Notes under the pieces: generated by a model | Seen by the model: only the letters and a program-made list of their open reading frames with translations | The model's database searches: none | What the model was told of the DNA's origin: nothing | Virus record (IMG/VR): IMGVR_UViG_3300029821_000084 | Coordinates: 1 to 48,729 of that record | Direction: 5' to 3' (one strand) | From: a virus | Lineage: Duplodnaviria > Caudoviricetes | DNA: 48,729 nucleotides | Shown here: positions 2,433-46,681 of the stretch, in pieces | Layout of the letters: every line of letters starts with the position of its first letter | How positions within the stretch are numbered: the first letter of the stretch is position 1 | Program-made: the position numbers and the translations under genes

Positions 2433-2960
2433 TTATCCTGAAAATGTTACCAAAATAATAGTTAACGGAATCAAGATAAACGAATACATCAATGCTTTAT
2501 TGAATTGCTTCATTTTTTGATACGCTATCTTCGAATTAATATTAACTTGTTTTAATATCATTTCACAAATCTCTTTATCAGTTGCCTTTTTAGCTAAATC
2601 GAGATACTCTTGATCAGTCATATTAGAAACAGATATGAAAGAAACAAGGTTAGTATGATCAATTGAAAGACCTGTTTTTAATCTTGCTGTAAAAACTAAT
2701 ATTAAATTGTATATAACTAGAAACAAAACTAATAGATACAAAACAGCTATTATTATACCGAAGGTAATTGATACATTATTCCCATTCAATATAACATCAA
2801 CAATTTTGCTATAGGAGTTTGAAGTTAATCCTACAAGCAAAGCAATAAATGCTAACAATATGGATGATTTACTATCAGCAGCAGTTATCCAAGAGTTGAC
2901 TAGTTCTAGTGTTCTATATGATGTATCTTTATCAAAAGCTTTATCTATTTTATCTCCCAT
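2433..2960 (-). CDS. pycTM: Pycsar transmembrane effector (PycTM-like)
   Basis: 'WITAADSKSSILLAF' N-terminal motif, two TM helices, 'QVNINSKIAYQK' and a C-terminal TM helix; overlaps the cyclase gene. Confidence 0.8.
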   Translation of the reverse strand: MGDKIDKAFDKDTSYRTLELVNSWITAADSKSSILLAFIALLVGLTSNSYSKIVDVILNGNNVSITFGIIIAVLYLLVLFLVIYNLILVFTARLKTGLSIDHTNLVSFISVSNMTDQEYLDLAKKATDKEICEMILKQVNINSKIAYQKMKQFNKALMYSFILIPLTIILVTFSG

Positions 2961-3619
2961 GTTGCCTCCTTGATAATATAAGTGTTTGGTAAATCAGTTA
3001 TGAAATTTTCACAAAAAACTCTATGATGTTGATCTAAGTGCTCATAGGTTTTTGAGTCTAGTATAATTTGCTCTTCTTTCGCTTTGCTACAAAATTTGGA
3101 AGCGTAGTTTGTTATATCACTAGGATATGCAACCTCACTACCATTATCAGTCGTTAGCCTTGTAACATAAACATGTCCTGTTCTAATACCGATACCACAG
3201 CCAATTTTCCAATCCTTGTTTAATAGAGAATTCATTGACTCAGCTATGTAAGTATGAATGGTCAATGCAGCATCAACTGCTCTTTGTCCGGAATTTCCTG
3301 TTGTATCATTTGTGAATCCACATAGGATGCCATCACCAACAATTTGAAGTATTGATCCATTATAATCATTTATAGCTTTCTTGCATAAGTTAGTAAACAT
3401 TTTATAGATCTTGACCATATTCTTTCTGCCTATGCTATCAGTCAGAACAGTTGAACTTCTAATGTCTACAAACATTAGTGATGCTTCGATATTATATACC
3501 TTGCTACCACTGGGAATCTGATTTTTATCCAAAAAACCATCTTGGTTAATAACATTTATATTTTGATCCAGGATTTGCTTTAGCTCATTTTTTAATTGAT
3601 CAATTTGACTCTGTTTCAT
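2945..3619 (-). CDS. pycC: Class III nucleotide cyclase (Pycsar PycC-like)
   Basis: Metal-binding motifs FVDIRSST and VGDGIL, plus GIGIRTG; coupled to a PycTM-like gene. Confidence 0.8.
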   Translation of the reverse strand: MKQSQIDQLKNELKQILDQNINVINQDGFLDKNQIPSGSKVYNIEASLMFVDIRSSTVLTDSIGRKNMVKIYKMFTNLCKKAINDYNGSILQIVGDGILCGFTNDTTGNSGQRAVDAALTIHTYIAESMNSLLNKDWKIGCGIGIRTGHVYVTRLTTDNGSEVAYPSDITNYASKFCSKAKEEQIILDSKTYEHLDQHHRVFCENFITDLPNTYIIKEATWEIK

Positions 3620-25533: not shown

Positions 25534-26409
25534 TTATAGTCCGATACTTTTTAGCATTTCTTCATCTTTCATAATGAAATCTAAGAACACATGTTTTTCA
25601 CCATCTTTGTCAAACAATTGATTCAAAGATATTAGTGTATCAACCTTAACCTGATTTAGTTCTTTATTAATATTATGTTCTTTTCCACTCACATACTTTA
25701 TGAGATCAACAATTTTGTTTGCTAATTTATTAAAAAGTGCCACTGCTTTTTCGATATTTATATTTCTAAATTTATCACCCACATAAAAGTTGATATCTTT
25801 ATGTGCCACATAACTATCTCTTAAATCATTTATTTCTCTAACAAAAGAATCATTATTGTCTAAACTCTTTGAATATTCTTTCATTAATTGTTTGAAAGCA
25901 ACAGTCGATTCACCGTATGTTTCTAGTAGTTTGAGTACATCTCTTGTTAGAATTTCATGCTTATACTTAACATTACTCCCACCATCAATCAAGAAGTGAT
26001 TAATTCCCAAGCAAATAGTTGATAAGGCATTATCAATAAATGTTTGTATGATTTTCTTTTCAATACTAAATTTGACATAAATAGCATTTAGAACTATTAC
26101 CAAAATGCTGTTAGAATATAGTTTATATACATAATTTAACGAGTCTAGAAGACGAACATATATTTCCATCAACTTTACATAGTCATCAAATGAATCATAT
26201 ATTAATATTTTATTGTCTTCATATTTCAAGTAACCATTATCATGTAAGAATCGAATTTCTTTGTTATAATGTTCAATTTCATCAGAACGTCTAACCTTCA
26301 TTATTTCAAGAATATCAAAGTTCAAATTACTATTTTTTGGTAATTTTTTTATTTCATTGAGAACATTTTTTGTATCGTATCCTAGATAAATTTTCACACT
26401 TAGCACCAT
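25534..26409 (-). CDS. HEPN-like (AbiU2-type) protein inserted between terminase and portal
   Basis: All-helical, with INDLRDSYVAHKD (R-x5-H); AT-rich insertion. Confidence 0.6.
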   Translation of the reverse strand: MVLSVKIYLGYDTKNVLNEIKKLPKNSNLNFDILEIMKVRRSDEIEHYNKEIRFLHDNGYLKYEDNKILIYDSFDDYVKLMEIYVRLLDSLNYVYKLYSNSILVIVLNAIYVKFSIEKKIIQTFIDNALSTICLGINHFLIDGGSNVKYKHEILTRDVLKLLETYGESTVAFKQLMKEYSKSLDNNDSFVREINDLRDSYVAHKDINFYVGDKFRNINIEKAVALFNKLANKIVDLIKYVSGKEHNINKELNQVKVDTLISLNQLFDKDGEKHVFLDFIMKDEEMLKSIGL

Positions 26410-32774: not shown

Positions 32775-32809
32775 TATATATCACTCTAAAGGCATTAAAT
32801 AGCAAGTCA
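32775..32809 (-). promoter_or_regulatory. 35-bp upstream motif, copy 1 (shared with the integrase)
   Basis: tgacttgctatttaatgcctttagagtgatatata is 30/35 identical to 46647-46681. Confidence 0.7.
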
Positions 32810-32828: not shown

Positions 32829-34058
32829 CTAAAGTGACAATATCTGAAAGTCGTTGATATGACTAAGCGGTATCTCTTTTCCATTGCGAATGAGATAACA
32901 ATCATCAAGCGATACTTTGTACTTTAAATAGCGTTTTACAATCACATCCACAAATCTTTCATCCAGTTCCATGATTCTTGCTCTTCTTTGAAGCTGATCA
33001 GATGCGATCATGGTTGATCCAGACCCACCAAACAAATCTAAGACTATATCATTTACTCTGGATGAATTAGCGATAGCTTTACCGACGAGTTCTAATGGTT
33101 TCATCGTTGGATGTTCTTCATTTCGTTTTGGTTTGTTATATTCCCATATCGTATCTTGAGTACGGTCATCCACAAAGTAATGAGCAGCACCTTCTCTCCA
33201 ACCATAAAGAATAGGTTCATGTCGCCAGTGATAATCTTGTCTACCTAAGACTAGTGCATTTTTTACCCAAATGAGACACTCTGCGAGTTTATACCCAGCA
33301 TTCTTGAAAGCATTTCTAAAGTTGAGTCCTTCAGTGTCTGCATGACACACATAAATAGCACCACCTGGCTTTGTATGTTCAAACATATTCTCAAAGGCTT
33401 TATAAAGAAAAAGATAGAAGTTATTATCTTCCATCTTATCGTTCATTATTTTTCCAGCTGTGCCTTCATAATCGACATTGTATGGTGGATCTGTAAAAAC
33501 TAAATCTATCCGATCATCTTGGATCAGCTTCTTTACATCAGTTTTTTCTGTAGAATCACCACACATCACTCGGTGATTACCTAAAATATAAATATCGCCC
33601 TTTTGTGTATACGGTGCATCTGATAGATCATCTGTTGGATCAAAGTCATCGTCGGTCGCATTATCTGGTACATTTGCTTCTAGTTCCTCAAATCCAAAGA
33701 GTGACATATCCATTTCAATGTTTGCTAGTTCTTCTTCGAGTTTTGCAAAATCCCAGGTCGCAAGCTCTGCAGTTTTATTATCTGCAAGTCTGAATGCTTT
33801 GATTTGCTCTTCTGTTAAGTCATCAGCAATAATACAAGGCACTTCATCTAGTCCAAGCTTAAGGCTTGCTTTTAGTCTCGTATGTCCTGCAATAATGACA
33901 TGATCTTTGGTGATCACAATTGGAACTTTAAATCCAAACTCCTCTATACTTTTAGCAACAGCCTCAACTGCAGCATCATTGTTTCTTGGATTGTTTTCGT
34001 ACTCTTGGAGTGCTGATACTTTCTTCATCACGATATTCATTGATCCATACCTCTTCAC
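32829..34058 (-). CDS. ParB-like N-terminal domain fused to N6/N4 DNA methyltransferase
   Basis: NPR.N...IIAGHTRL...RLADNK (ParB); TDPPYNV, HPTMKP and LDLFGGSGST (beta-class MTase). Start probably at MNIVM. Confidence 0.92.
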   Translation of the reverse strand: MKRYGSMNIVMKKVSALQEYENNPRNNDAAVEAVAKSIEEFGFKVPIVITKDHVIIAGHTRLKASLKLGLDEVPCIIADDLTEEQIKAFRLADNKTAELATWDFAKLEEELANIEMDMSLFGFEELEANVPDNATDDDFDPTDDLSDAPYTQKGDIYILGNHRVMCGDSTEKTDVKKLIQDDRIDLVFTDPPYNVDYEGTAGKIMNDKMEDNNFYLFLYKAFENMFEHTKPGGAIYVCHADTEGLNFRNAFKNAGYKLAECLIWVKNALVLGRQDYHWRHEPILYGWREGAAHYFVDDRTQDTIWEYNKPKRNEEHPTMKPLELVGKAIANSSRVNDIVLDLFGGSGSTMIASDQLQRRARIMELDERFVDVIVKRYLKYKVSLDDCYLIRNGKEIPLSHINDFQILSL

Positions 34059-34500
34059 CTTTTTCTAATCGTTTGGTCATCAGTTCGATTTCTGCTTTTT
34101 TCTCGTTATACTCAATACCGAACTTTGTAATGAGTAAATATTTAATCGCTGTGATTTCAGGAAGCGACTGCTTCTTATACTTAGTGATACGTTTTTTAGT
34201 CCCCGATTTAGTTTCTTCAATCACAGTTTGTGTTTCTTCGTATTCAAATCCAACAGCTCGTTGATACATTGCATCGACGAGTTTTTCTTTTAACTCCTCA
34301 TCCCCGTATTGAAAAGCTTTATTCAATTTAGGATGAGCTTTTCTTAACTTAATGAGTGTTTTTTCTGTTATACCTAAGTATTCAGCAACCTGTCTTTGTG
34401 TTGCTCGCTTAGATATCATTTCAGATATGGCTTTTAATCTACTATTTAGATGTCCAGATTCTTCCCAACGCTCATACAGATCTAACATTTTCCCTTTCAT
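33976..34500 (-). CDS. HTH protein resembling a second small-terminase-like DNA-packaging protein
   Basis: TQRQVAEYLGITEKTL HTH, then AMYQRAVGFEYEE...TAIKYLL. Confidence 0.55.
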   Translation of the reverse strand: MKGKMLDLYERWEESGHLNSRLKAISEMISKRATQRQVAEYLGITEKTLIKLRKAHPKLNKAFQYGDEELKEKLVDAMYQRAVGFEYEETQTVIEETKSGTKKRITKYKKQSLPEITAIKYLLITKFGIEYNEKKAEIELMTKRLEKGEEVWINEYRDEESISTPRVRKQSKKQ

Positions 34501-34584
34501 TCAATCACTCCAACTGTACAACTGTCATTGTATAAAACTGTAATAGTTTACCAGTTGGAATACTACAAGTATCTCTGCAAAAAC

Positions 34585-34610
34585 AAAAAGGAACTCATTT
34601 CTGAATTCCC
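34585..34610 (-). terminator. Intrinsic terminator in the late-operon leader
   Basis: GGAAUUCA-GAAA-UGAGUUCC-UUUUU with a GNRA loop. Confidence 0.7.
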
Positions 34611-34777
34611 ATTATTTCTAGGCTGGTTTTAAAGCCAGTATTCCATGTTATTTATAGCATATCAAAATAGTCAACTTTTATCTATATGCTTAAAGCATAA
34701 TCGAACCCGTGTATCATTCTTGGTCTTTTCCAACTAACAACAACCTTTAGTTGCTTACTGAATTGCTTTTCTTTTCG

Positions 34778-34822
34778 TTTCCATTTTGTTAGCCCACATA
34801 CACAGATTATCGGCGTAATAAA
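34778..34822 (-). repeat. 45-bp dispersed motif, copy 1
   Basis: tttccattttgttagcccacatacacagattatcggcgtaataaa is 40/45 identical to 43155-43199. Confidence 0.9.
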
Positions 34823-34828
34823 ATAAAA

Positions 34829-35815
34829 TTATTCTTGAATTTCTTTCAATTCTTGTTCAATCATGTATTCTTCTCTAATTTCAGACAATGTTTTATTGCT
34901 TTCTTTATGAATTGCAAAAACATAGGTCTGAATACTTGACCATCCGTAAAGATTTTTAAGCCATACTTGCATTGATAACTCTTTACCATCTACTTTAACA
35001 TTCCCATTTTTCAGAAGAACAGCTTCATCTTCTCTATCTTTTGCTCGTATAATATCGCCTGCTTTAACAACACCCCATGAAAGCATGGTGTCAATTTTAG
35101 GTAAAGTTCTTCTCGTTATTCCTTTTGAAACTCTTTGAGCAGGCTCTGATTTATCAAGTAAGTTCACGTAGAAATCATCATAATTTGCCACAGGTAATAA
35201 TTTTTCCGTATCCAAATAAATCTCCGAACCTAATTTATACGGAATTAGCTTAAAGCAACTCATATCGACTTTGTTTTTATTGAGCCAAGCAACTGCTGAC
35301 AAAGTCTGTTCGTCAAATTCAGAAGCAACTAATATAATTCGTTGGTTTTCATTGAATTTGTCTATAGCATTATTAACTTTCAAGAACTCTTTTATTTTTC
35401 TAAGTCCAAGTTCGTATGATGTTAGTTCATTTAATGTAAATTCTTCTTTATATTTTTCAATATAAGGAGCGTAGACAATTTTCACAATTTCTTCTACAGA
35501 TTTTATAGTTGCATAACTAGCAGCATACCTGATTGCTTGAAATTCAAAAGCTTCTTTTCTGCCTTCGATATCTTTTCTATCACGTTTAATTTCGATTAAT
35601 ACCACAGATCCATTATTATCAATTGCGGTTAAGTCACTTCTGCCATTTTTTTCATTCTTAACTTGTCTGCCAATAATGAGCAACGACTCTTCATCATCAC
35701 AAACCATATCAATATTAGTTCTTAGAACTTCTTCAATGTCACTTTCTAGCAAACCTAGGTCATAAAACGTAACCTTTTCAATTTTTGTTGCTTTTTTACT
35801 TTTAAGATTATACAT
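34829..35815 (-). CDS. NucS-like PD-(D/E)XK nuclease with C-terminal RAMA-like domain
   Basis: LLESDIE, IIGRQV, SDLTAID, IEIKRD and QAIRYA; C-terminal GVVKAGD...LLKNGNV.VDG...KTLSEIR. Confidence 0.7.
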   Translation of the reverse strand: MYNLKSKKATKIEKVTFYDLGLLESDIEEVLRTNIDMVCDDEESLLIIGRQVKNEKNGRSDLTAIDNNGSVVLIEIKRDRKDIEGRKEAFEFQAIRYAASYATIKSVEEIVKIVYAPYIEKYKEEFTLNELTSYELGLRKIKEFLKVNNAIDKFNENQRIILVASEFDEQTLSAVAWLNKNKVDMSCFKLIPYKLGSEIYLDTEKLLPVANYDDFYVNLLDKSEPAQRVSKGITRRTLPKIDTMLSWGVVKAGDIIRAKDREDEAVLLKNGNVKVDGKELSMQVWLKNLYGWSSIQTYVFAIHKESNKTLSEIREEYMIEQELKEIQE

Positions 35816-35846
35816 AAAATCCTCCCATGATCAATGGTTATACTAC

Positions 35847-38800
35847 CTATTGATACTTCTTGAAGTTCTCAGCTTGTAAGAATATTTCTTTAAACACTTC
35901 ATCTTGTACAACAGGAGGATACCCATAATCTGCCATAGTAAGTATGATTGACACTTTTAGATCCGCCTTAATATCTTCCTTTTTAGCCCAATCTGTGTAA
36001 CGCGACTTATCATCAACAATCTTCTTCATTTCTTTAGACAATTCTATTAACTTTTGTTCACCATGTTGCTTGATATAATCCTCATAAAAATCATGCTGTT
36101 TTGCAATTTCAACTAAAATATCAAAAAATGCCTTTTCTTCAAAATCAATACCGAGATCCTTAAATGATTCCTTGTCAGCTTCTAGTTCTTTTAGTAATTT
36201 GGTTAATTCTTCAGCAACATTATCTAATATTTCTTCAGCGTACACTTTATCACCGTGGCGATTATTATACGAATCAATCATTTTCTGAAGTTTCTCTGAA
36301 AACTGAATGCCTTTGATTCTATTAACTTTTTTATAAGCTTCTATTGCATCCTTAAGTAGTTTAGTCAAAACTTTTATCTTTGTATTCTTTAAAGGGATTT
36401 TATTGATTCTTTCTAAATACTCATCGGAGAATATATCAACACTTCTTGATCCAACAATTTTACTTCTAGTGAAAACCTCTTCAACACCCTCACTTAATAT
36501 TGCTTCTTGAATCATCTTTCTTACATAATCATTCATTTGAGCAGTATCAGGAGCATCGCCTTTAGTAAGTTTGAAAATTATTGATCTAACCGCACCATAG
36601 AAGTATATTTTATCTCTCTCTAGTTTGGAAATATTTTCACTGGAACTACAAAGATCATATGCTGACTTCATTCTTTTTACAGATGCCATGAACCTTTTTT
36701 CTAAATCGTCAGTTAATTGAACATATTCTGACGCATGTTTTAGACAGTTTAATTTTTGTACAGGTGATCCAGTAAAAAACATTGCATCATCAAAGTTTTT
36801 AAATACTCGTCTTAGTATATCTAGTTCATCTTTTACTATCTTGATAGCTTCATCAATACCTTCAAATACCTCACTATCAGCTCTATTGAATTTCTTGAGT
36901 GCTAAATTCATATGAGATTTAAAGCCAAAATAATCAACGATTAGTCCCTTTTCTTTTCCCGGATAAACCCTATTCACTCTTGAAATAGTCTGAATCAGAG
37001 TATGCTCTTGAAGTGGTTTATCTATGTACATTGTATCTAAAGAAGGAACATCAAACCCCGTCAGCCACATATCGACTACGATAGCAATCTTGAAATTTGA
37101 TTTCTCGTTCTTAAATTGTCTATCTAGCTCAGTCCTATATTGCTTGTTTCCTGCAATTTCATATAGTTGCTCTTCATCATCCTTTGCCCTAGTTATTACT
37201 AGATTTATAAATGGCAACTCAGTTAATTGGCGATTTTCGCTTTCTGTTAACTCTACACCATCTGGAGCCTTTTTATTAATTGCCCATTCTGGTCTTTTGT
37301 CGATTATTCTCTTATATAAATTAAAAGCAATTTCTCGAGTCATACAAACAATCATCGCTTTACCATTGACTGTTGATTTTTCAAATACTCTGCGTTCATA
37401 ATGTTCGATTAAGTCATTGGCAACAGCATCAAGTCTTTGCTCATCACCGATAATAACATCTAGTTTTGAAACTGCTTTTTGACTCTCCTCTATTTGATAC
37501 TCATTTGTTCCTTCATTTGCGCATTTTTCATAATACTCTTCAATTTCTTTTGCTTTATTTTGATCTAGTATCACTTTGGCTGCTCTACCTTCGTAAACAA
37601 TATTAACAGTTATGCCATCTTCTACTGATTCCTTCATTGTATAAGAATCTACTATCTTACCAAAGACATCTAATGTTGAATCAACCGGAGTTCCTGTAAA
37701 ACCAACATATGTAGCATTTGGTAATGAATCATGAAGATACTTTGCAAAACCATATCTTTTATGTACTCCAACATCATTAATAATAATCTTTTGGTTGACA
37801 TTTGTTTGTGTTCTATGTGCTTCATCAGATATACAAATAATATTTGTTCTATCACTTAATAAATCTGTATTTTCAGTGAATTTCTGAATAGTAGTAAGAT
37901 ATACTCCTCCGCTATTCCTACTACAAAGTTTTTCCTTTAAATGCTCTCTATCCGTTATTTTAATAACTTCTTTATCACCAATAAATTTTTTGGACTCAAC
38001 AAATTGCTCAGACAATTGTTTGTCAAGATCATTTCTATCAGTTATTAATAAAATCGTCGGACTGTTGAGTTTTTTGTCCCGCATTAAAAGTCTAGTTAAA
38101 AACAGCATTGTATAACTTTTACCTGAACCTGTAGCACCAAAATAGGTTCCTCCTTTACCGGAACCTTGTGGTTTTATGTTCTGTAATATACTATCGTGAA
38201 GTTTCTTTGCAGCGAAAAATTGAGGATATCTGCAAACGACTTTTAAATCTGTTGTAGATTCATCTGGAAAATATATGAAATTTTTGATAACATCCAATAG
38301 CCTTTCTTTCTCAAAAAGCCCATCTATTAATGTATTGAATGTATCTATTCCATCCTTATCACCTGATTCATCATTCACCCTTCTCCACGCATAAAAATAA
38401 TCATACGGAGCAAATAAAGATCCATATTTTGTGCTAACACCATCACTAATAACGAGAAATGCGTTGTATTTAAATAAATCTGGAATATCTCGCTTATATC
38501 GTACAGTGAGCTGTTTGTAAGCATCAAAAATGGTTGCATTTTCTCTAACGGCAGACTTAAACTCAAAAACAACTAATGGTAGTCCGTTAATATATAAAAT
38601 CAGGTCCGGTATTCTTTTTTCATTCCCTTTTATTTCTATCTGATTAACTAGTTTAAACTCATTGTTTGATATATTTTCAAAATCTAAAAGAGTTATCCAA
38701 ATGTCTTTATTTTGATTGTTCTTTCTTTTCAATAAAAATCCATCGATAACATACTTGAATAACTCTTTATTCCCCTCGTATAAAGACTTTCTCTTTATGT

Positions 38801-39008
38801 TAAGAACAGTAGATACAATCTGCTCGATTTCATCATTTTGAATTGATTCATTTCGATATTTATTAAACAAGTAATTCTTAAAATCATCAACAAGTAAAAC
38901 TTCTGAGATATCTTTGTGAATATTCGAGCCATGATTATATTGATATCCTTTTTCTATTAATCTATCAATAAAACCTATCTCGATTGAAGATTCATTAAAC
39001 AGACTCAT
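35847..39008 (-). CDS. hsdR: Type I restriction enzyme subunit R
   Basis: PDLILYINGLPLVVFEFK, ATGSGKS, DEAH, GFTGTP, MWLTGFD and QTISRVNR. Confidence 0.97.
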   Translation of the reverse strand: MSLFNESSIEIGFIDRLIEKGYQYNHGSNIHKDISEVLLVDDFKNYLFNKYRNESIQNDEIEQIVSTVLNIKRKSLYEGNKELFKYVIDGFLLKRKNNQNKDIWITLLDFENISNNEFKLVNQIEIKGNEKRIPDLILYINGLPLVVFEFKSAVRENATIFDAYKQLTVRYKRDIPDLFKYNAFLVISDGVSTKYGSLFAPYDYFYAWRRVNDESGDKDGIDTFNTLIDGLFEKERLLDVIKNFIYFPDESTTDLKVVCRYPQFFAAKKLHDSILQNIKPQGSGKGGTYFGATGSGKSYTMLFLTRLLMRDKKLNSPTILLITDRNDLDKQLSEQFVESKKFIGDKEVIKITDREHLKEKLCSRNSGGVYLTTIQKFTENTDLLSDRTNIICISDEAHRTQTNVNQKIIINDVGVHKRYGFAKYLHDSLPNATYVGFTGTPVDSTLDVFGKIVDSYTMKESVEDGITVNIVYEGRAAKVILDQNKAKEIEEYYEKCANEGTNEYQIEESQKAVSKLDVIIGDEQRLDAVANDLIEHYERRVFEKSTVNGKAMIVCMTREIAFNLYKRIIDKRPEWAINKKAPDGVELTESENRQLTELPFINLVITRAKDDEEQLYEIAGNKQYRTELDRQFKNEKSNFKIAIVVDMWLTGFDVPSLDTMYIDKPLQEHTLIQTISRVNRVYPGKEKGLIVDYFGFKSHMNLALKKFNRADSEVFEGIDEAIKIVKDELDILRRVFKNFDDAMFFTGSPVQKLNCLKHASEYVQLTDDLEKRFMASVKRMKSAYDLCSSSENISKLERDKIYFYGAVRSIIFKLTKGDAPDTAQMNDYVRKMIQEAILSEGVEEVFTRSKIVGSRSVDIFSDEYLERINKIPLKNTKIKVLTKLLKDAIEAYKKVNRIKGIQFSEKLQKMIDSYNNRHGDKVYAEEILDNVAEELTKLLKELEADKESFKDLGIDFEEKAFFDILVEIAKQHDFYEDYIKQHGEQKLIELSKEMKKIVDDKSRYTDWAKKEDIKADLKVSIILTMADYGYPPVVQDEVFKEIFLQAENFKKYQ

Positions 39009-40083
39009 AATTTCCCCCTAGTAAATTAAAATTAATATAGTTCGAATAATTCACGGTTAGAGATAGTTGAATTGCTTCATTGTATAGCATTTTATTCCAA
39101 ATCGGCTTTAAGTATCTATCTATTGCACTGATTATGGTATCATCTGATGGCAAATCCACTAGTAATCTTTCTATATTTTGAATTGTAATCTGAGGCTGAG
39201 CTGATCCAGTGACTGATTTCTTCAGATCTGTGTAATCTAACAACCCCTTAAGAAAGAACTGATTTCCTTTGCTACTTTTAAATTTAAATACTAAAGAGTT
39301 ACTCGTTATAAATGATTTTCGATGTGTAATGTAATTATTGCCTGATTTTTCCCCTCGGCAAGATACAATATTAACGGATTCTTCATATAAATATTTTGAA
39401 TATTTGCCAATTATCCCATTTCCTCCATAAACATAATACCCATCACTCTTTAGTTTGGAAACAGGTAATCCTTTGCCATATACAATATCTACAAAATCGG
39501 AAAAGGTTTTTTGTTCTTTTGCTATATTCGAGTAAGCAAAACTAAATATTAGATTAGATAGCTTTGAGAGTAACTCGTTTTGACTCTTATACTTAATAAT
39601 CATTTTTTCATAAATAGTAATTTTTCTAACAATATCCATTTGAATTTTTAAATCAGGAATCGGTAGAATAACGTTACACATCTTCTCCCAATCAAATATC
39701 TCCCTAACACTCCCATGAGACATGAATCTAGCATATCTGTCAAACTCGGGTCTTTTAAACCATAAAATTAAGTATTCTGGAAGCAGTAAGTTTTGATCTA
39801 TAATCTCAAAAACAGTGTAAGCTTGAGAAACAAGCGCTTTTTCTCTATCTAGCAAGAGTGCTATGCCCATTTTATCTCCTCTTCTAGATGTATCAGGGAT
39901 ATAGCAAAATTGACCGTGCATAATTACTTTATACTTTTTCCAGTCTGTTCCATTGGTGTTTGCAACAGAAGGAATAAACTCTTTTGTTACAGAAACACCA
40001 AGTAAGTTTTCCTGTATATTTTCTTTATTACGTATATTGACTTCTTTAATGTAGTCTCCTAATCTTTTATAATTCAATCTCAT
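38995..40083 (-). CDS. hsdS: Type I specificity subunit S
   Basis: Two TRDs (GSVRE...ILPIPD..Q; TGSAQPQI) between hsdM and hsdR. Confidence 0.9.
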   Translation of the reverse strand: MRLNYKRLGDYIKEVNIRNKENIQENLLGVSVTKEFIPSVANTNGTDWKKYKVIMHGQFCYIPDTSRRGDKMGIALLLDREKALVSQAYTVFEIIDQNLLLPEYLILWFKRPEFDRYARFMSHGSVREIFDWEKMCNVILPIPDLKIQMDIVRKITIYEKMIIKYKSQNELLSKLSNLIFSFAYSNIAKEQKTFSDFVDIVYGKGLPVSKLKSDGYYVYGGNGIIGKYSKYLYEESVNIVSCRGEKSGNNYITHRKSFITSNSLVFKFKSSKGNQFFLKGLLDYTDLKKSVTGSAQPQITIQNIERLLVDLPSDDTIISAIDRYLKPIWNKMLYNEAIQLSLTVNYSNYINFNLLGGNYESV

Positions 40084-41635
40084 AACCTAGTTCCTTCAAA
40101 ACATCTAATAATTCTTCTTTTGACTGTTCTTCTTCCATCATTAAATCTCTTAAGTCGAGAGTTAGTTTTTCCATTAATTTATGGTAGTTTATATTTTCAT
40201 CATTATTAATAAACTCAATATATTCATTAGGTGCAAGTGAAAAGTTTTTATTAACAATTTCTTCTGTTGTCGCAGAATAACAAAATTCAGGTATATTGTT
40301 GTAATGTTTGAAACCATCTTTACTTTGCCAGTTATGATATATTGTTGAAATTTCCTTTAAATTTTTAGGACTAAATTCAATATATTTTTTTTCAAAAGGA
40401 ACACCTGTTTGTCTTAAATCTACAAAGAGAACCTCATTCTTACGATCTCTCAATACTATTTTTTCTTTATCTACTTCAATAGTTCGTTCATTCTTATTAT
40501 TCGATATAATCCATAATGAAACACCTATATCAGTTGTGTAAAAAAGGTTTCTTGGTAAATAGAAAACTGCGTCAACTAGATTATTTTCTATGAGTTTCTT
40601 ACGTATTTCTAATTCTGATCCACCACCGCTAAGTGATCCGTTGGCTAATAAGAATGCCGCAACACCGTTTGAACTCAATTTAGATACCATGGTGAGAATC
40701 CAACCATAATTTGCATTACCGGTCGGTGGAACATCATATCCTAACCACCTATCATCATCGGTTAGTTCATTTTCCTTTCTCCATTTACTTTGATTGAAAG
40801 GCGGATTAGCAAGAATATAATCAGCCTTTAAATCTTTGTGTTGGTCTTGAGAGAATGTGTTGGCAGGCTTCTCACCTAGATTAGCTAATATTCCTCTAAT
40901 AGCAAGGTTCATCTTAGCTAGTTTATAAGTGGTTGAACTCATCTCTTGACCATAAATTGATACATCCTTTGTGTTACCGTGATGAGCCTCAACAAATTTC
41001 ATTGATTGAACAAACATACCTCCTGAACCACAGGCTGGATCATATATTTTACCTTTATATGGTTGTATCAATTCGGTCATCAATGTAACTACAGTCTTAG
41101 GCGTATAAAACTCACCTTTACCTTTACCTTCTTTTAATGCGAATTTCTTTAAAAAATATTCATAAACTCTTCCTATAATATCTTCATTTGAATCCTTTAT
41201 AGTATCTAAATTATTAACAATATCAATCAAAGATGATAGATTATTCACTTCTAAACTAAGTCTAGAATAATAGTTATCCGGTAGTGCTCCTTTTAATGAG
41301 TCATTGTTTTCTTCTAGCTTAGATAATGCTGTGTCTACAATTAAAGAAATATTAGGTTGTTTTGAATTTTCAACTATATAGTCCCATCTAGACTCTTTAG
41401 GGACATAAAACACACGTTCACGCGTATAAAATGGCACCATGTCTATGTATTGTGCTCTTCCTTCTAAAACAAGTTTTTCCTTAACAACATTAAATTTATC
41501 ATTTGCAAATTTTAGAAATATTAACGAAAGTACAACATGTTTATATTCTGAGCTCTCTACAGTGCCCCTTAAATTGTTTGCTGCTTCCCAAAGTAATTCT
41601 TCAAATCCTTTATTATTTTTGATATTTTTAGCCAT
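40067..41635 (-). CDS. hsdM: Type I methyltransferase subunit M
   Basis: LWEAANNLRG, GEFYTP, YDPACGSGGMF and ANPPFN. Confidence 0.97.
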   Translation of the reverse strand: MAKNIKNNKGFEELLWEAANNLRGTVESSEYKHVVLSLIFLKFANDKFNVVKEKLVLEGRAQYIDMVPFYTRERVFYVPKESRWDYIVENSKQPNISLIVDTALSKLEENNDSLKGALPDNYYSRLSLEVNNLSSLIDIVNNLDTIKDSNEDIIGRVYEYFLKKFALKEGKGKGEFYTPKTVVTLMTELIQPYKGKIYDPACGSGGMFVQSMKFVEAHHGNTKDVSIYGQEMSSTTYKLAKMNLAIRGILANLGEKPANTFSQDQHKDLKADYILANPPFNQSKWRKENELTDDDRWLGYDVPPTGNANYGWILTMVSKLSSNGVAAFLLANGSLSGGGSELEIRKKLIENNLVDAVFYLPRNLFYTTDIGVSLWIISNNKNERTIEVDKEKIVLRDRKNEVLFVDLRQTGVPFEKKYIEFSPKNLKEISTIYHNWQSKDGFKHYNNIPEFCYSATTEEIVNKNFSLAPNEYIEFINNDENINYHKLMEKLTLDLRDLMMEEEQSKEELLDVLKELGYEIEL

Positions 41636-41731
41636 TTTATCGCCCCATTCATTACAAAGTCTTATTTTAATTATTATACACTATTTATATACAAAAAACG
41701 ACATCTTGTTGCAATTAAAGGCTATCTAGTG

Positions 41732-42211
41732 TCAGTTTTGAGAAAACTCTTTATTATCATAAACTAGCCACAATCTAATGATTTCTTCCTTTTTTTGGTT
41801 GTACGAACCTCTTTTTAACCCTAAATCTTTAAGAATTACTAGAACATTGCTTCTTTCAACAAATGCTGTAATGATAATCTTAAGTTCATCTTTAAGTGAG
41901 TTTTTGAAATTTTCATACTTCCTTAGTACTTCATTGTTTATTTCTATTTCATCTTCAACCTGATTAATCTTATCAATCCAGTAAAGAAGGTTCTCATCAC
42001 CATTTTTATTTGAAGATCCTGATCCAATCTGATCGTATGAGATTCCATGGTAACCTATGAGTTTAACTTTGTAATATTCAAGCTTTTCTTGAAGTTCAGG
42101 TAGTTTTCTTTTAGATCGTCTAACTTTATCTATCCATTTATAAAACGAGTCGTTTAAACCAGTCTTCGATTGATTCATGACTATGCTCCCTTCTTCTTTG
42201 GAACATCTCAA
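41732..42211 (-). CDS. ArpU/RinA-like late transcriptional regulator (start probably MNQSK, 42178)
   Basis: Helical N-terminus, ISYD.IGSGS linker, C-terminal HTH-like segment; last gene of the early operon. Confidence 0.6.
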   Translation of the reverse strand: MRCSKEEGSIVMNQSKTGLNDSFYKWIDKVRRSKRKLPELQEKLEYYKVKLIGYHGISYDQIGSGSSNKNGDENLLYWIDKINQVEDEIEINNEVLRKYENFKNSLKDELKIIITAFVERSNVLVILKDLGLKRGSYNQKKEEIIRLWLVYDNKEFSQN

Positions 42212-43061
42212 GATTATTCATTAAAGACTTACGCATGAAGCTAAATTTATCTTCGATAGGTGTTTCAGTTCTTTTTGAATAACTTACTATATAGTCTACT
42301 GCAGCTAAGACATCATCAAATCCATAAATAGATACTGCTTCATCAAAAAGCTTATTGTATTTTCCAATTTCTAATGTTCCATCCTCAATATATTGGCTTC
42401 TAATTATTGCTTTTGTGATGTAGTGATAATTAGGTAATGAATATACCCCTTTATCCTTTTTATCCTCTTTATCTCTTTCTTTTTTCTTTTCTTTTTCTTT
42501 TTGTGTACTTTTGTATGCAATAACCTCAGTTGAAGTGTCATTATTGCTATCAATAACATCACTTGAAGTATCATTACTGTTATCAATAACTACGGTTGAA
42601 CTCGGGTTATTGTCCACATTAACTTGTGGTGTCTTTTTGTAGAAATTATTAAGCTCTAGCATCGTATGTTGATCCAATAACCAGTACTTCTGATGCTCAA
42701 TCCCACGTCTACGCCTTGTAGAAAGCGTAAACTGCCGCTGTATCGCTTTTGAAGTGAACACACCTACACTAAGTAGTTCTTTATCAAATAGCCCGTTAGA
42801 ACCGGCTCTTAAAATAATTTTTTCTATTTCATTCACACTTGGAGCCCAGGCATTACCAATACTCTTTATGAGTGCTTTTGCTGCTTGCTCCGTTGTCATT
42901 TCTAAATAATAACCATGCGCATAAATCATGGTTAAAAGGCGGATGTATACCATCTCGCCCATCACACCATACATTAAATTTAAATCCGTTATCTTTTCAT
43001 CTTCAAAAAAATTCACATCAAGTGGGAAGTATTGCAGTCCCATTTTGAACGGTCTCGCCAT
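42138..43061 (-). CDS. Phage replication initiator (DUF4373/Lin1244-like)
   Basis: MARP.K.GL.YFPLDV.FFED.KI, GLFD and TSKAIQR; internal repeats and a KE-rich linker. Confidence 0.85.
   Translation of the reverse strand: MARPFKMGLQYFPLDVNFFEDEKITDLNLMYGVMGEMVYIRLLTMIYAHGYYLEMTTEQAAKALIKSIGNAWAPSVNEIEKIILRAGSNGLFDKELLSVGVFTSKAIQRQFTLSTRRRRGIEHQKYWLLDQHTMLELNNFYKKTPQVNVDNNPSSTVVIDNSNDTSSDVIDSNNDTSTEVIAYKSTQKEKEKKKERDKEDKKDKGVYSLPNYHYITKAIIRSQYIEDGTLEIGKYNKLFDEAVSIYGFDDVLAAVDYIVSYSKRTETPIEDKFSFMRKSLMNNLEMFQRRREHSHESIEDWFKRLVL
42519..42614. repeat. Three ~33-bp tandem repeats (probable iterons/ori)
   Basis: aataacctcagttgaagtgtcattattgctatc / aataacatcacttgaagtatcattactgttatc / aataactacggttgaactcgggttattgtc, next to a T-rich tract at about 42447-42502. 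Confidence 0.75.
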
Positions 43062-43083
43062 TATTTTAGTCCTTTCACATCAC

Positions 43084-43124
43084 AAAAAGCATGCCATTTT
43101 TAGGTTTCTATATATAGCATGCTT
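43084..43124 (-). terminator. Terminator-like hairpin in front of the replication gene
   Basis: AAGCAUGCUAU...AUGGCAUGCUU followed by Us; long (16-nt) loop. Confidence 0.55.
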
Positions 43125-43154
43125 CTGTAAGTCATTATCTTTTGTTTCCTGCAT

Positions 43155-43199
43155 TTTCCATTTTCATAGCCCTGATACACACATTATCGGCGTAATAAA
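43155..43199 (-). repeat. 45-bp dispersed motif, copy 2
   Basis: tttccattttcatagccctgatacacacattatcggcgtaataaa is 40/45 identical to 34778-34822. Confidence 0.9.
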
Positions 43200-43202
43200 T
43201 CA

Positions 43203-43415
43203 TTATTTATTTTTGCTTGTTTTATGAAGCTCATCAATAAACTTTACGAGATTTTCTTTCGATACTCTCCACCCTGGTCCTATCTTAAATGCGTGTAGTT
43301 TTCCTTTTTTGATATAGGTTGATAACGTTCTTCTTGATACTCTTAATATGTCTGCTACTTCTTCTAGTTTGTAATAATCTCGTGTTGGTTCTTGACGCTT
43401 AGTTTCGTTTATCAT
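43203..43415 (-). CDS. Excisionase-like HTH_17 protein
   Basis: YKLEEVADILRVSRRTL...GKLHAFKIGPGWRV. Confidence 0.85.
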   Translation of the reverse strand: MINETKRQEPTRDYYKLEEVADILRVSRRTLSTYIKKGKLHAFKIGPGWRVSKENLVKFIDELHKTSKNK

Positions 43416-44174: not shown

Positions 44175-45122
44175 TTAGTTGTCTTCATCTTCTTCTTGAT
44201 TGAGCAGCTTTTGTGCAATAACATGTTCATAAACATGCTGACTTTTGATTTCCGCATGCATATAAATCTCTGTTGTTGCTGGATCTGAATGACGCATAAT
44301 CTTTTGAGTGTCATCCTTGTTTGCTCCATATTGTCTTGCTAATGTTGCAGTTGTATGTCTTAAGCTATGTGCTGTATGTTTATCATCATCAAATCCGATA
44401 TCTCTGAGTAGATCCTTGATAATACGTCTAATGTTTCTGGTTTTCATTCTTTGGCCTAAATACTTAGGTTTATGGTCAATAAATAACGGTTCATACTGGT
44501 CGCTTCTTTTCATGATGTATGTTTCAATTGCTTTATTCACTAAAGGCGAGAGTCGAACGAATGAACTCTTCGATGTTTTGCCTTTTCCATGAACATAGAG
44601 TATTTCACCATCATCAATCACATTTAAATCACTAACATCTGCACGTTCGACTTCAACAGTTCGCATCCCAGTTGTTAGCATAAGTAAAACCATAACATAA
44701 TCTCTGTATTTAATGATGTTTTTATCTGAATTGATTTGAGCAAGTTTTAATAACTGTCTGGATTCACTTTCAGATAAATGCGCACGTTTAAACTTCTTTT
44801 CAATTTTTGGACTTTTAATCCCTTCCGATGGATTTGCTCCATGACCGTTCGTGTGATACCAACGATAGAAATTTCGTACCACTACCAGGTGATACTTAAT
44901 GGTTGTCTCTTCTAGCTTGCGTTTAAAAAGATAGTCTCGATAAGCCATAACGTCACTGCGAGTTGGTAAATCAGACAGTGTGTTGGCGTAATCTACAAAT
45001 TGCTGAAGGATCCTTTCATAGGATTGCTTAGTCGTCATACTTACATCGGCATCATCTAGATACTTTTTTGTAAGTAGCTTAAACCCTTCTTTTGATGACA
45101 TCTTTTCACCTTTCTGTATCAA
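44175..45122 (-). CDS. Tyrosine recombinase (XerC/D-like)
   Basis: TGMRTVE, GKGK, HSLRHT, MRHSDPATTEIY; the catalytic R-K-H-R-H-Y set is intact. Confidence 0.93.
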   Translation of the reverse strand: MIQKGEKMSSKEGFKLLTKKYLDDADVSMTTKQSYERILQQFVDYANTLSDLPTRSDVMAYRDYLFKRKLEETTIKYHLVVVRNFYRWYHTNGHGANPSEGIKSPKIEKKFKRAHLSESESRQLLKLAQINSDKNIIKYRDYVMVLLMLTTGMRTVEVERADVSDLNVIDDGEILYVHGKGKTSKSSFVRLSPLVNKAIETYIMKRSDQYEPLFIDHKPKYLGQRMKTRNIRRIIKDLLRDIGFDDDKHTAHSLRHTTATLARQYGANKDDTQKIMRHSDPATTEIYMHAEIKSQHVYEHVIAQKLLNQEEDEDN

Positions 45123-46646: not shown

Positions 46647-46681
46647 TGACTTGCTATTCATTGCTTTTTGAGTGATGTATA
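46647..46681 (+). promoter_or_regulatory. 35-bp upstream motif, copy 2 (integrase)
   Basis: tgacttgctattcattgctttttgagtgatgtata is 30/35 identical to 32775-32809. Confidence 0.7.

Follow-up and report, generated by a model that had tools for sequence, protein, structure and literature searches.

The window analysed here is a stretch of 48,729 nucleotides (nt) from a tailed virus (Caudoviricetes; IMG/VR virus record IMGVR_UViG_3300029821_000084, positions 1 to 48,729), which by gene content is a siphovirus-type prophage. It contains two copies of a 45-base-pair (bp) repeat at positions 34778-34822 and 43155-43199. The conserved object within this repeat is a 28-bp two-armed dif-like site with arms of 11 bp and a core of 6 bp (11-6-11), which recurs in Acholeplasma-type prophages and satellites. 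The two copies are very likely recombination sites of some kind, and they are probably the sites at which the prophage's own Xer-type tyrosine recombinase recombines like with like, the exchange of cargo genes being a by-product. A first-pass annotation of this DNA had read the repeat as an undescribed antitermination RNA and had named sites of the tyrosine recombinase as the alternative. Its description of the repeat holds: the copies have the same orientation, are identical at 40 of 45 positions and lie 8377 bp apart, and each starts just past a stop codon, 3 nt after an excisionase (xis)-like gene and 6 nt after a gene for a protein of 328 amino acids (aa). Given the composition, the chance expectation for such a repeat pair is 3.8e-8.

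Architecture of the site and its family

Both sites lie on the minus strand. Site A (43167..43194) comprises a left arm at 43194-43184, a core at 43183-43178 (TGTGTG) and a right arm at 43177-43167, as delimited by its sequence, the family profile and the dyad axis; site B (34790..34817), delimited by the profile, comprises a left arm at 34817-34807, a core at 34806-34801 (TCTGTG) and a right arm at 34800-34790. Homologous loci were gathered in three ways, by the recombinase, by the terminase small subunit gene terS and by the replication initiator gene rep. The terS-anchored loci were the best 80, the recombinase loci included 10 kb of flank, which left some B sites out of reach, and 18 regions were extended. 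Self-comparison of these loci revealed a two-copy repeat at the same two places even in relatives whose recombinase is only 42-48% identical. The family profile, which reads CCGATAA, a 6-bp core T-x-x-x-T-G and T(G/T)AACGG, scores 17 bits or more at 128 distinct sites across 256 loci (3.49 Mb in total), compared to 4 in shuffled sequences, and divergent sites of 4-17 bits were added by position. All but two of the 128 sites are on the sense strand, the other two being near-palindromes, and nearly all are intergenic, with A following xis and B preceding terS. Exact-pattern scans returned 9 viral and 65 genome matches, of which only 6 and 3 are relatives and the rest are chance matches; no A/B hybrid site was among them. 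Several loci with the site are satellite-like (L118, L119, L122, L194, L198, L202, L207 and L428); they keep the integrases, cI, cro, the recombinase, xis, rep, site B and terS, terL was not seen in their flank, and some have a perfect dyad upstream of cro.

The Watson-Crick symmetry between the arms is maximal at a spacer of 6 bp (0.63, compared to 0.11-0.35 for the other eight spacers), and perfect inner dyads are found in L122, L186 and L191. Departures from the dyad are G-U in 48 and A-C in 62 cases; as these numbers are about equal, neither RNA strand is favoured, and the dyad read as an RNA stem would have two fixed inner mismatches. The 11-6-11 layout defines Xer sites (PMC5357621; statements on published systems follow the accessible portions of the cited papers throughout). 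The host chromosomes contain one exact canonical copy of dif in each of five genomes, e.g., ACTTCCTATAA TATATA TTATGTTAACC, and Xer-like genes in all four genomes tested. Host dif and phage site have the inner signature in common and a near-identical left arm, which in site B of L114 is one base off that of the host, whereas the right arms differ. The phage sites sit inside mobile elements and the hosts carry a separate canonical dif, which sets the phage sites apart from those of chromosome dimer resolution.

Each site is followed, from the first base past its right arm, by an array of words phased at 11 bp, recognized by autocorrelation and word positions. Array B occupies 34724..34789 and array A 43101..43166, both on the minus strand; array A overlaps the start of a terminator-like hairpin and is weak in the window and clear in relatives. 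In the 100 nt past the A sites, trimer autocorrelation is raised 2.0-, 2.5- and 2.0-fold at lags 11, 22 and 33, while the B sites show it at lags 10-11 only. The upstream side of the sites is flat, so that the phasing is one-sided and lies downstream, with array words peaking at site positions 29, 40, 51 and 73. Displaced copies of the site keep around 66 bp of array, which together with the 28-bp site gives a unit of around 94 bp. Xis and Apl bind to direct repeats in helical phase (PMC7498355), and in Tn4430 it is accessory motifs on one side that direct resolution and favour deletion between direct repeats (PMC2847244); core and array therefore fit together as one recombination site. The array is read from autocorrelation and word positions, since the word-frequency periodogram has broad maxima at 11-12.5 and 8.5-9 and no clean 11-bp peak. 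After controlling for the recombinase, xis correlates weakly with the array (r=0.21).

Recombinase, second core base and cargo border

The predicted cognate enzyme is a Xer-type tyrosine recombinase of 315 aa (44175..45122, minus strand) with an intact R-K-H-R-H-Y set, and the six catalytic residues are invariant in all 81 site-bearing recombinases. Both by sequence and by predicted fold it is nearest to archaeal XerA, which is also its best NCBIfam match, albeit under the cut-off of that family. Residues 228-233, in a helix predicted to contact the outer arm, covary with the arms of the sites, and in recombinase lineages that do not conform to T-R-x-I-R at residues 228-232 the arms are altered, in many cases on both sides. 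This segment aligns with TRQT of XerD. The matching XerD helix has a role in base recognition, and the AlphaFold model of the phage enzyme has low confidence at residues 216-229, so that the helix assignment rests on the XerD alignment. In XerH, the matching helix region contacts the outer arm (PMC5241119). Across 39 recombinase clusters, the 5-residue window at this segment comes first of 309 windows in its partial correlation with arm distance (r=0.45) when whole-enzyme and xis distance are controlled for. The same window ranks 1-14 in nine reruns on both arms and 5 and 19 on the single arms (the right arm being 19 of 309), compared to rank 260 for the core and rank 87 for the array. As a whole, the arms covary with the recombinase (partial r 0.43) rather than with xis (0.18), which favours one recombinase recognizing both arms.

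Enzyme and site also tend to occur together. In 64 rep-anchored loci with room upstream, 23 have both and 35, most of them distant, have neither; five have the enzyme only and one has a marginal site only. Twenty records with a common late module gave neither a recombinase nor a pattern match (5 of the 20 are at least 90% complete), and those mapped carry another replication module. Weak sites are possible in these twenty, as the strict pattern also missed a divergent site after rep in five enzyme-bearing records. The xis-like gene lies within 1.5 kb of the recombinase gene in 126 of 133 loci, and more distant recombinase loci have a profile match in 3 of 71 cases. Rep and the 159-aa protein encoded next to it were considered as site binders and dropped, because sites remain where rep is of another family or the 159-aa gene is absent. 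In a separate locus (L110:1927-1996), the recombinase gene runs straight into a truncated terS, a deletion which is not bounded by sites.

The two copies differ at five positions, one of which was passed over by the first-pass annotation: core position 2, which is G in A and C in B. This difference recurs throughout the family. A and B differ at core position 2 in all 24 distinct combinations, and in 20 it is the sole core difference; the independent count is small, as the combinations reduce to 9 distinct core pairs. G is present in 20 of 23 A sites and in none of 39 B sites. In elements with several sites, all sites are distinct at position 2 in 34 of 36 cases, once a spurious 9-bit match within a gene is dropped, and the three-site genomes L452, L453 and L467 each have G, A and C. 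Core positions 3-6 are more often alike in sites of one element than in sites of different elements (5 of 9 distinct core pairs, where permutation gives a mean of 1.8; P ~0.01). The mismatch at position 2 may damp or reroute recombination of A with B rather than block it. In L201, three identical cores (6975, 8219 and 10102) bracket a gene fused to the terS leader and an AbiEi/AbiEii pair, which resembles a row of cassettes.

Site B also marks the right border of the variable cargo. Six close relatives lose homology to the window within the 159-aa gene or directly behind it (41630-41906). Four of them regain it, past unrelated cargo, at 34815-34822, the outer edge of the left arm of B; the last cargo gene is shared in the remaining two. 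An independent joint lies at 34818 in a contig from a different study. The sharp edge fits crossovers at B and equally fits selection that keeps B intact. Additional site-plus-array units are located within the cargo of L452, L453, L404, L405 and L201. The alternative given by the first-pass annotation is supported as far as recombinase sites are concerned, but A is no cargo edge and the 8.4-kb circle which it implied was not seen in the contig sets and loci compared. In a complete A. laidlawii chromosome (L180, from 11831 onward), xis precedes a site that has a non-G core and a B-like array, and the element lacks rep as well as the 159-aa gene. The seven nearest neighbours of this array are B-type or cargo-internal and none is A-type, in a classification that is correct in 93 of 102 cases. 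L180 is one decayed element and no more than suggestive of a possible product of A-by-B deletion.

Judged from these sequences, the recombinase and Xis would be made from the early operon after induction, and the Xis-like protein would coat the array of around six 11-bp-phased words. Both proteins could then build a synapse of core and accessory parts, as in the Tn4430 IRS or plasmid cer/psi. The basic job would be recombination of B with B and A with A between copies of the replicating circular genome, i.e., multimer control. Deletion of the segment between A and B is not the ancestral job, since many elements carry only B, and the mismatch at position 2 would damp this deletion, thereby protecting rep and its origin. 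As a by-product, crossovers of co-resident phages at B would set the point at which exchanged defence cargo ends on the right. A bolder version, which we regard as a possibility of rather low probability, is a natural recombinase-mediated cassette exchange in tailed prophages of wall-less bacteria, whose sites are addressed by one core base (G, C or A). In such a system, the Xer enzyme and a Xis filament would let co-resident phages swap or stack replication and defence modules without deletion, and site-plus-array cassettes could be added in tandem.

Several observations weigh against the prophage's own recombinase as the user of sites that work in this way. The site profile was trained on the same loci it scored. 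The array is weak in copy A of the window, and B sites are flat at lags 22 and 33. The covariation between arms and helix is strong but not blind evidence, as the helix-J column was inspected by eye ahead of the test and N-terminal windows at residues 16-21 rank equally high; moreover, Mantel P values are inflated by shared ancestry, and xis is itself weakly correlated with the arms. Recombinase, xis and cro form one module, so that co-occurrence cannot single out the recombinase, and no site was detectable in the recombinase-bearing loci L120, L123, L183, L504 and L506. The position-2 rule is broken by L201, with three identical cores, and by L424 and L447, with two. A single spacer mismatch does not preclude recombination at Acinetobacter pdif sites (PMC13141974), which makes the damping of A-by-B recombination uncertain. 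Site A is not a cargo border, and a joint of an excised circle or of the deletion was absent both among the joints listed in 8 contig sets, where contigs drop rare forms, and among 80 rep-anchored loci.

Competing explanations

The antitermination RNA proposed at first was modelled on nut and put, and part of its basis is real: there are two copies, both on the transcribed strand like 126 of the 128 family sites, and four of their differences are compensatory pairs on the minus strand within these two copies. Terminator-like hairpins do lie downstream of the copies in the window (~43130-43080 and 34610-34589), and others are found around 31295 and 19053. Nevertheless, a put- or nut-like RNA is a highly improbable explanation for both copies. 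Neither stability of the hairpins nor the invariance claimed for one of them and for the loop of the other was confirmed: shuffled versions of the 45-mers fold just as well (z -0.30 and +0.43), and the predicted structures differ from the claimed ones. Of 96 distinct homologous sites, only 8 retain an intact hairpin 1 and 11 an intact hairpin 2. A folding signal is lacking on both strands of these sites (median z -0.18 for sense and -0.38 for antisense). Eight close relatives include breaks of hairpin 1 (L082-A, L079-B) and of hairpin 2 (L076-A, L082-B) as well as a change in the supposedly invariant loop (L081-B); both hairpins are already broken in relatives with a 98-99% identical recombinase. 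In a 60-site subset, the claimed RNA pairs form in around 48% of cells (47.5% and 48.9%), and the excess over column shuffles (48.1% vs. 43.8%) can be produced by relatedness alone. The association with terminators is not kept across relatives either. A terminator lies between A and rep in only 3 of 23 distinct A sites, and of 85 distinct pre-terS regions, 49 keep the leader and its U-tract without a strong site within 450 nt (a few of them have a divergent or more distant one) and 29 keep them with such a site. The late terminator is independent of the site, and the antitermination reading is not supported. Rfam gave 0 matches at the gathering score and unrelated matches below it, no RNA data set carrying the window sequence was among the matches listed, and HK022 put is an RNA of around 70 nt with two long stems (PMC9378689). 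An integron attC-like reading was dropped, as a single-strand hairpin signal is absent.

A separate candidate for RNA control of late read-through is the leader preceding terS (34510-34646, minus strand), rather than the repeat. This conserved structured leader consists of an outer stem, a small hairpin, an invariant purine-rich word and a terminator hairpin, and it is present in most of the 85 distinct pre-terS regions, with or without a dif-like site. RNAalifold predicts 19 pairs, 4 of which have double changes and most others of which are invariant; a search of Rfam gave no match to the leader. The operon behind it encodes a DNA methylase and an S-adenosylmethionine synthetase.

Three further explanations keep the repeat as DNA. 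The sites could belong to the same recombinase but mainly serve the programmed excision, by recombination of A with B, of an 8377-bp circle with rep, the origin and the cargo, which could re-enter another phage at A or B. We rate this as unlikely. It draws on A and B being direct repeats around rep and a possible origin, on one-sided accessory motifs favouring direct-repeat deletion in Tn4430 (PMC2847244), on the likeness of core positions 3-6 within elements (5 of 9, P ~0.01), on the one mismatch tolerated at pdif (PMC13141974), on L180 with its non-G core, B-like array after xis and missing rep and 159-aa gene, and on the extra site-plus-array units inside the cargo of the five loci given above. 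However, many elements have B without A (L118, L119, L124, L188, L193, L219 and others), neither a circle junction nor a related plasmid was found among the sequences compared (best full-length cover 58%), L180 is a single decayed element whose parent is not known, and a systematic mismatch at position 2 would be unexpected if excision were the purpose. It was also considered, and rated as about equally unlikely, that the units are pure operators, at which the Xis-like protein, or the recombinase as a DNA binder, covers head and array much like 186 Apl or P2 Cox and controls transcription into rep and the late operon without any strand exchange. The 11-bp-phased direct repeats match the binding mode of recombination directionality factors (RDFs; PMC7498355), both units precede regulated genes, the arm words resemble the array words and the correlation of xis with the array persists when the recombinase is controlled for (r=0.21). 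Such operators would leave unexplained the 11-6-11 dyad and its likeness to host dif, the perfect dyads without an evident array (L122 group, L191), the covariation of the arms with the recombinase over xis (partial r 0.43 vs. 0.18), the position-2 rule and the invariant catalytic residues. That host XerC/XerD, or host XerC paired with the phage enzyme, use the repeats as pdif-like sites is quite improbable. The hosts do have a canonical dif and two strong Xer-like genes, and the left arms of L114-B and L115-B are close to that of the host. The conserved right-arm sequence of the host is absent from the phage right arm, though; the phage arms change along with the phage enzyme, host dif being constant, and 126 of 128 sites share one orientation, whereas pdif sites alternate.

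Prophage setting and related systems

The nearest named protein to the tyrosine recombinase is from Acholeplasma laidlawii (98%), and most relatives come from bins of Acholeplasmatales, Izemoplasmatales and related Bacilli. The minus strand runs from cro through the tyrosine recombinase, antirepressor and xis-like genes to copy A, and on through rep, the 159-aa gene, type I restriction-modification genes and a PDC-S11-like gene to copy B, terS and the late genes; the plus strand encodes a serine integrase and the repressor. The xis-like gene (43203..43415) encodes an excisionase-like HTH_17 protein of 70 aa, the predicted array binder, which was identified by its domain match and its linkage to the recombinase. 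Between A and B, the replication initiator (42138..43061), identified by its Lin1244_N domain, contains a 33-nt tandem repeat (42518-42583, minus strand) that is a possible origin. The adjacent 159-aa protein (41732..42211) resembles DUF722/DUF1492 clusters and may be late-activator-like, which is a lead only; the left border of the variable cargo lies in or just after its gene. The defence cargo (34829..41635) consists of type I hsdM, hsdS and hsdR and the PDC-S11-like 328-aa protein, and close relatives have other genes there. The first late gene, terS (33976..34500), was assigned by annotation and begins around 290 bp beyond site B; all of these genes are on the minus strand. A Pycsar-like effector and cyclase pair is present near the left end of the window (2433-3619), and an AbiU2/HEPN-like gene lies between terL and the portal gene (25534-26409). 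The window has a full tailed-phage gene set with two holin-like genes, no window protein had a Pfam or PHROGs match to an endolysin, and the host is likely wall-less. An inverted 35-bp repeat (86%) at 32775-32809 and 46647-46681 lies ahead of a DUF6329 gene and the serine integrase gene; L107 and L183 carry it as a pair, too, and it resembles a common promoter element. No plasmid or cultured phage closely related to the window was found, the best plasmid having a full-length cover of 58%.

Many temperate phages carry a second, Xer-like recombinase without a known target. The family described here offers a defined enzyme with a defined site of 94 bp, together with a candidate for the accessory protein and a rule that depends on one base, and it is present in a host species that can be cultured. 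A survey of P2/P4 defence hotspots gave only candidate mechanisms for cargo exchange in its accessible part (PMC13586616). Should the sites indeed address module exchange, phages would encode a route of their own for shuffling anti-phage systems, and the sites could supply small orthogonal pairs of recombinase and site. Should multimer resolution be their only role, the gain is a modest but clean function assignment and the removal of a false RNA candidate.

A literature search did not find a description of this site-plus-array Xer system, with subscription papers and supplements outside its reach. Among the known systems, the single-recombinase Xer systems (archaeal XerA/dif, XerH/difH and XerS/difSL) likewise use one Xer-type enzyme on an imperfect 11-6-11 dyad (PMC5357621, PMC5241119), the inner arm bases are the most conserved, and XerA is the nearest solved structure to the prophage enzyme. 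In contrast to them, the prophage enzyme is a product of the early operon in a tailed prophage whose integration relies on a separate serine recombinase, its elements have two or three sites with a one-sided phased array and a linked Xis-like gene, and the host keeps its own dif and Xer genes. The prophage sites thus fall outside the chromosomal single-Xer systems, and the same applies to pdif and put. Acinetobacter pdif modules are similar in that a rep backbone and accessory modules are delimited by dif-like sites whose 6-bp spacers vary, and in that modules can be replaced between relatives (PMC13141974); in the accessible text, however, they use host XerC/XerD, alternate in orientation and lack an array, whereas the prophage sites are all direct, do not have the right arm of the host and are predicted to be served by an element-encoded enzyme. 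HK022 putL and putR resemble the repeat in having two similar copies per phage on the transcribed strand (PMC9378689), but the conserved two-stem RNA fold of around 70 nt described for put is absent here. The Tyrovirus protein gp50 is another Xer-like protein of a tailed temperate phage with a predicted 11-6-11 site, and its function, too, is predicted only; its site is one perfect dyad directly after the gene in the structural module, and an array, paired cores or a cargo border are not mentioned in the portion of the paper available (PMC9703825). The operators of 186 Apl and lambda Xis share the direct repeats one helical turn apart beside a recombination core as well as the small excisionase-like gene (PMC7498355). 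As far as this source goes, their core is the att site of the phage integrase, whereas the prophage core is internal to the genome and its Xer-like 315-aa enzyme has no arm-binding domain. Finally, TnpI/IRS of Tn4430 and cer/psi also combine a tyrosine-recombinase core with accessory sequences on one side and sites in direct repeat (PMC2847244, PMC5357621). Their accessory parts are described as two recombinase-bound repeats or PepA/ArgR sites, in contrast to the approximately six 11-bp-phased words of the prophage, which resemble the target of an RDF filament, and the prophage differs further in the mismatched cores within one element. Taken together, the system would work in the manner of the Tn4430 IRS or cer/psi, with an accessory part of the Xis type and modules like those of pdif.

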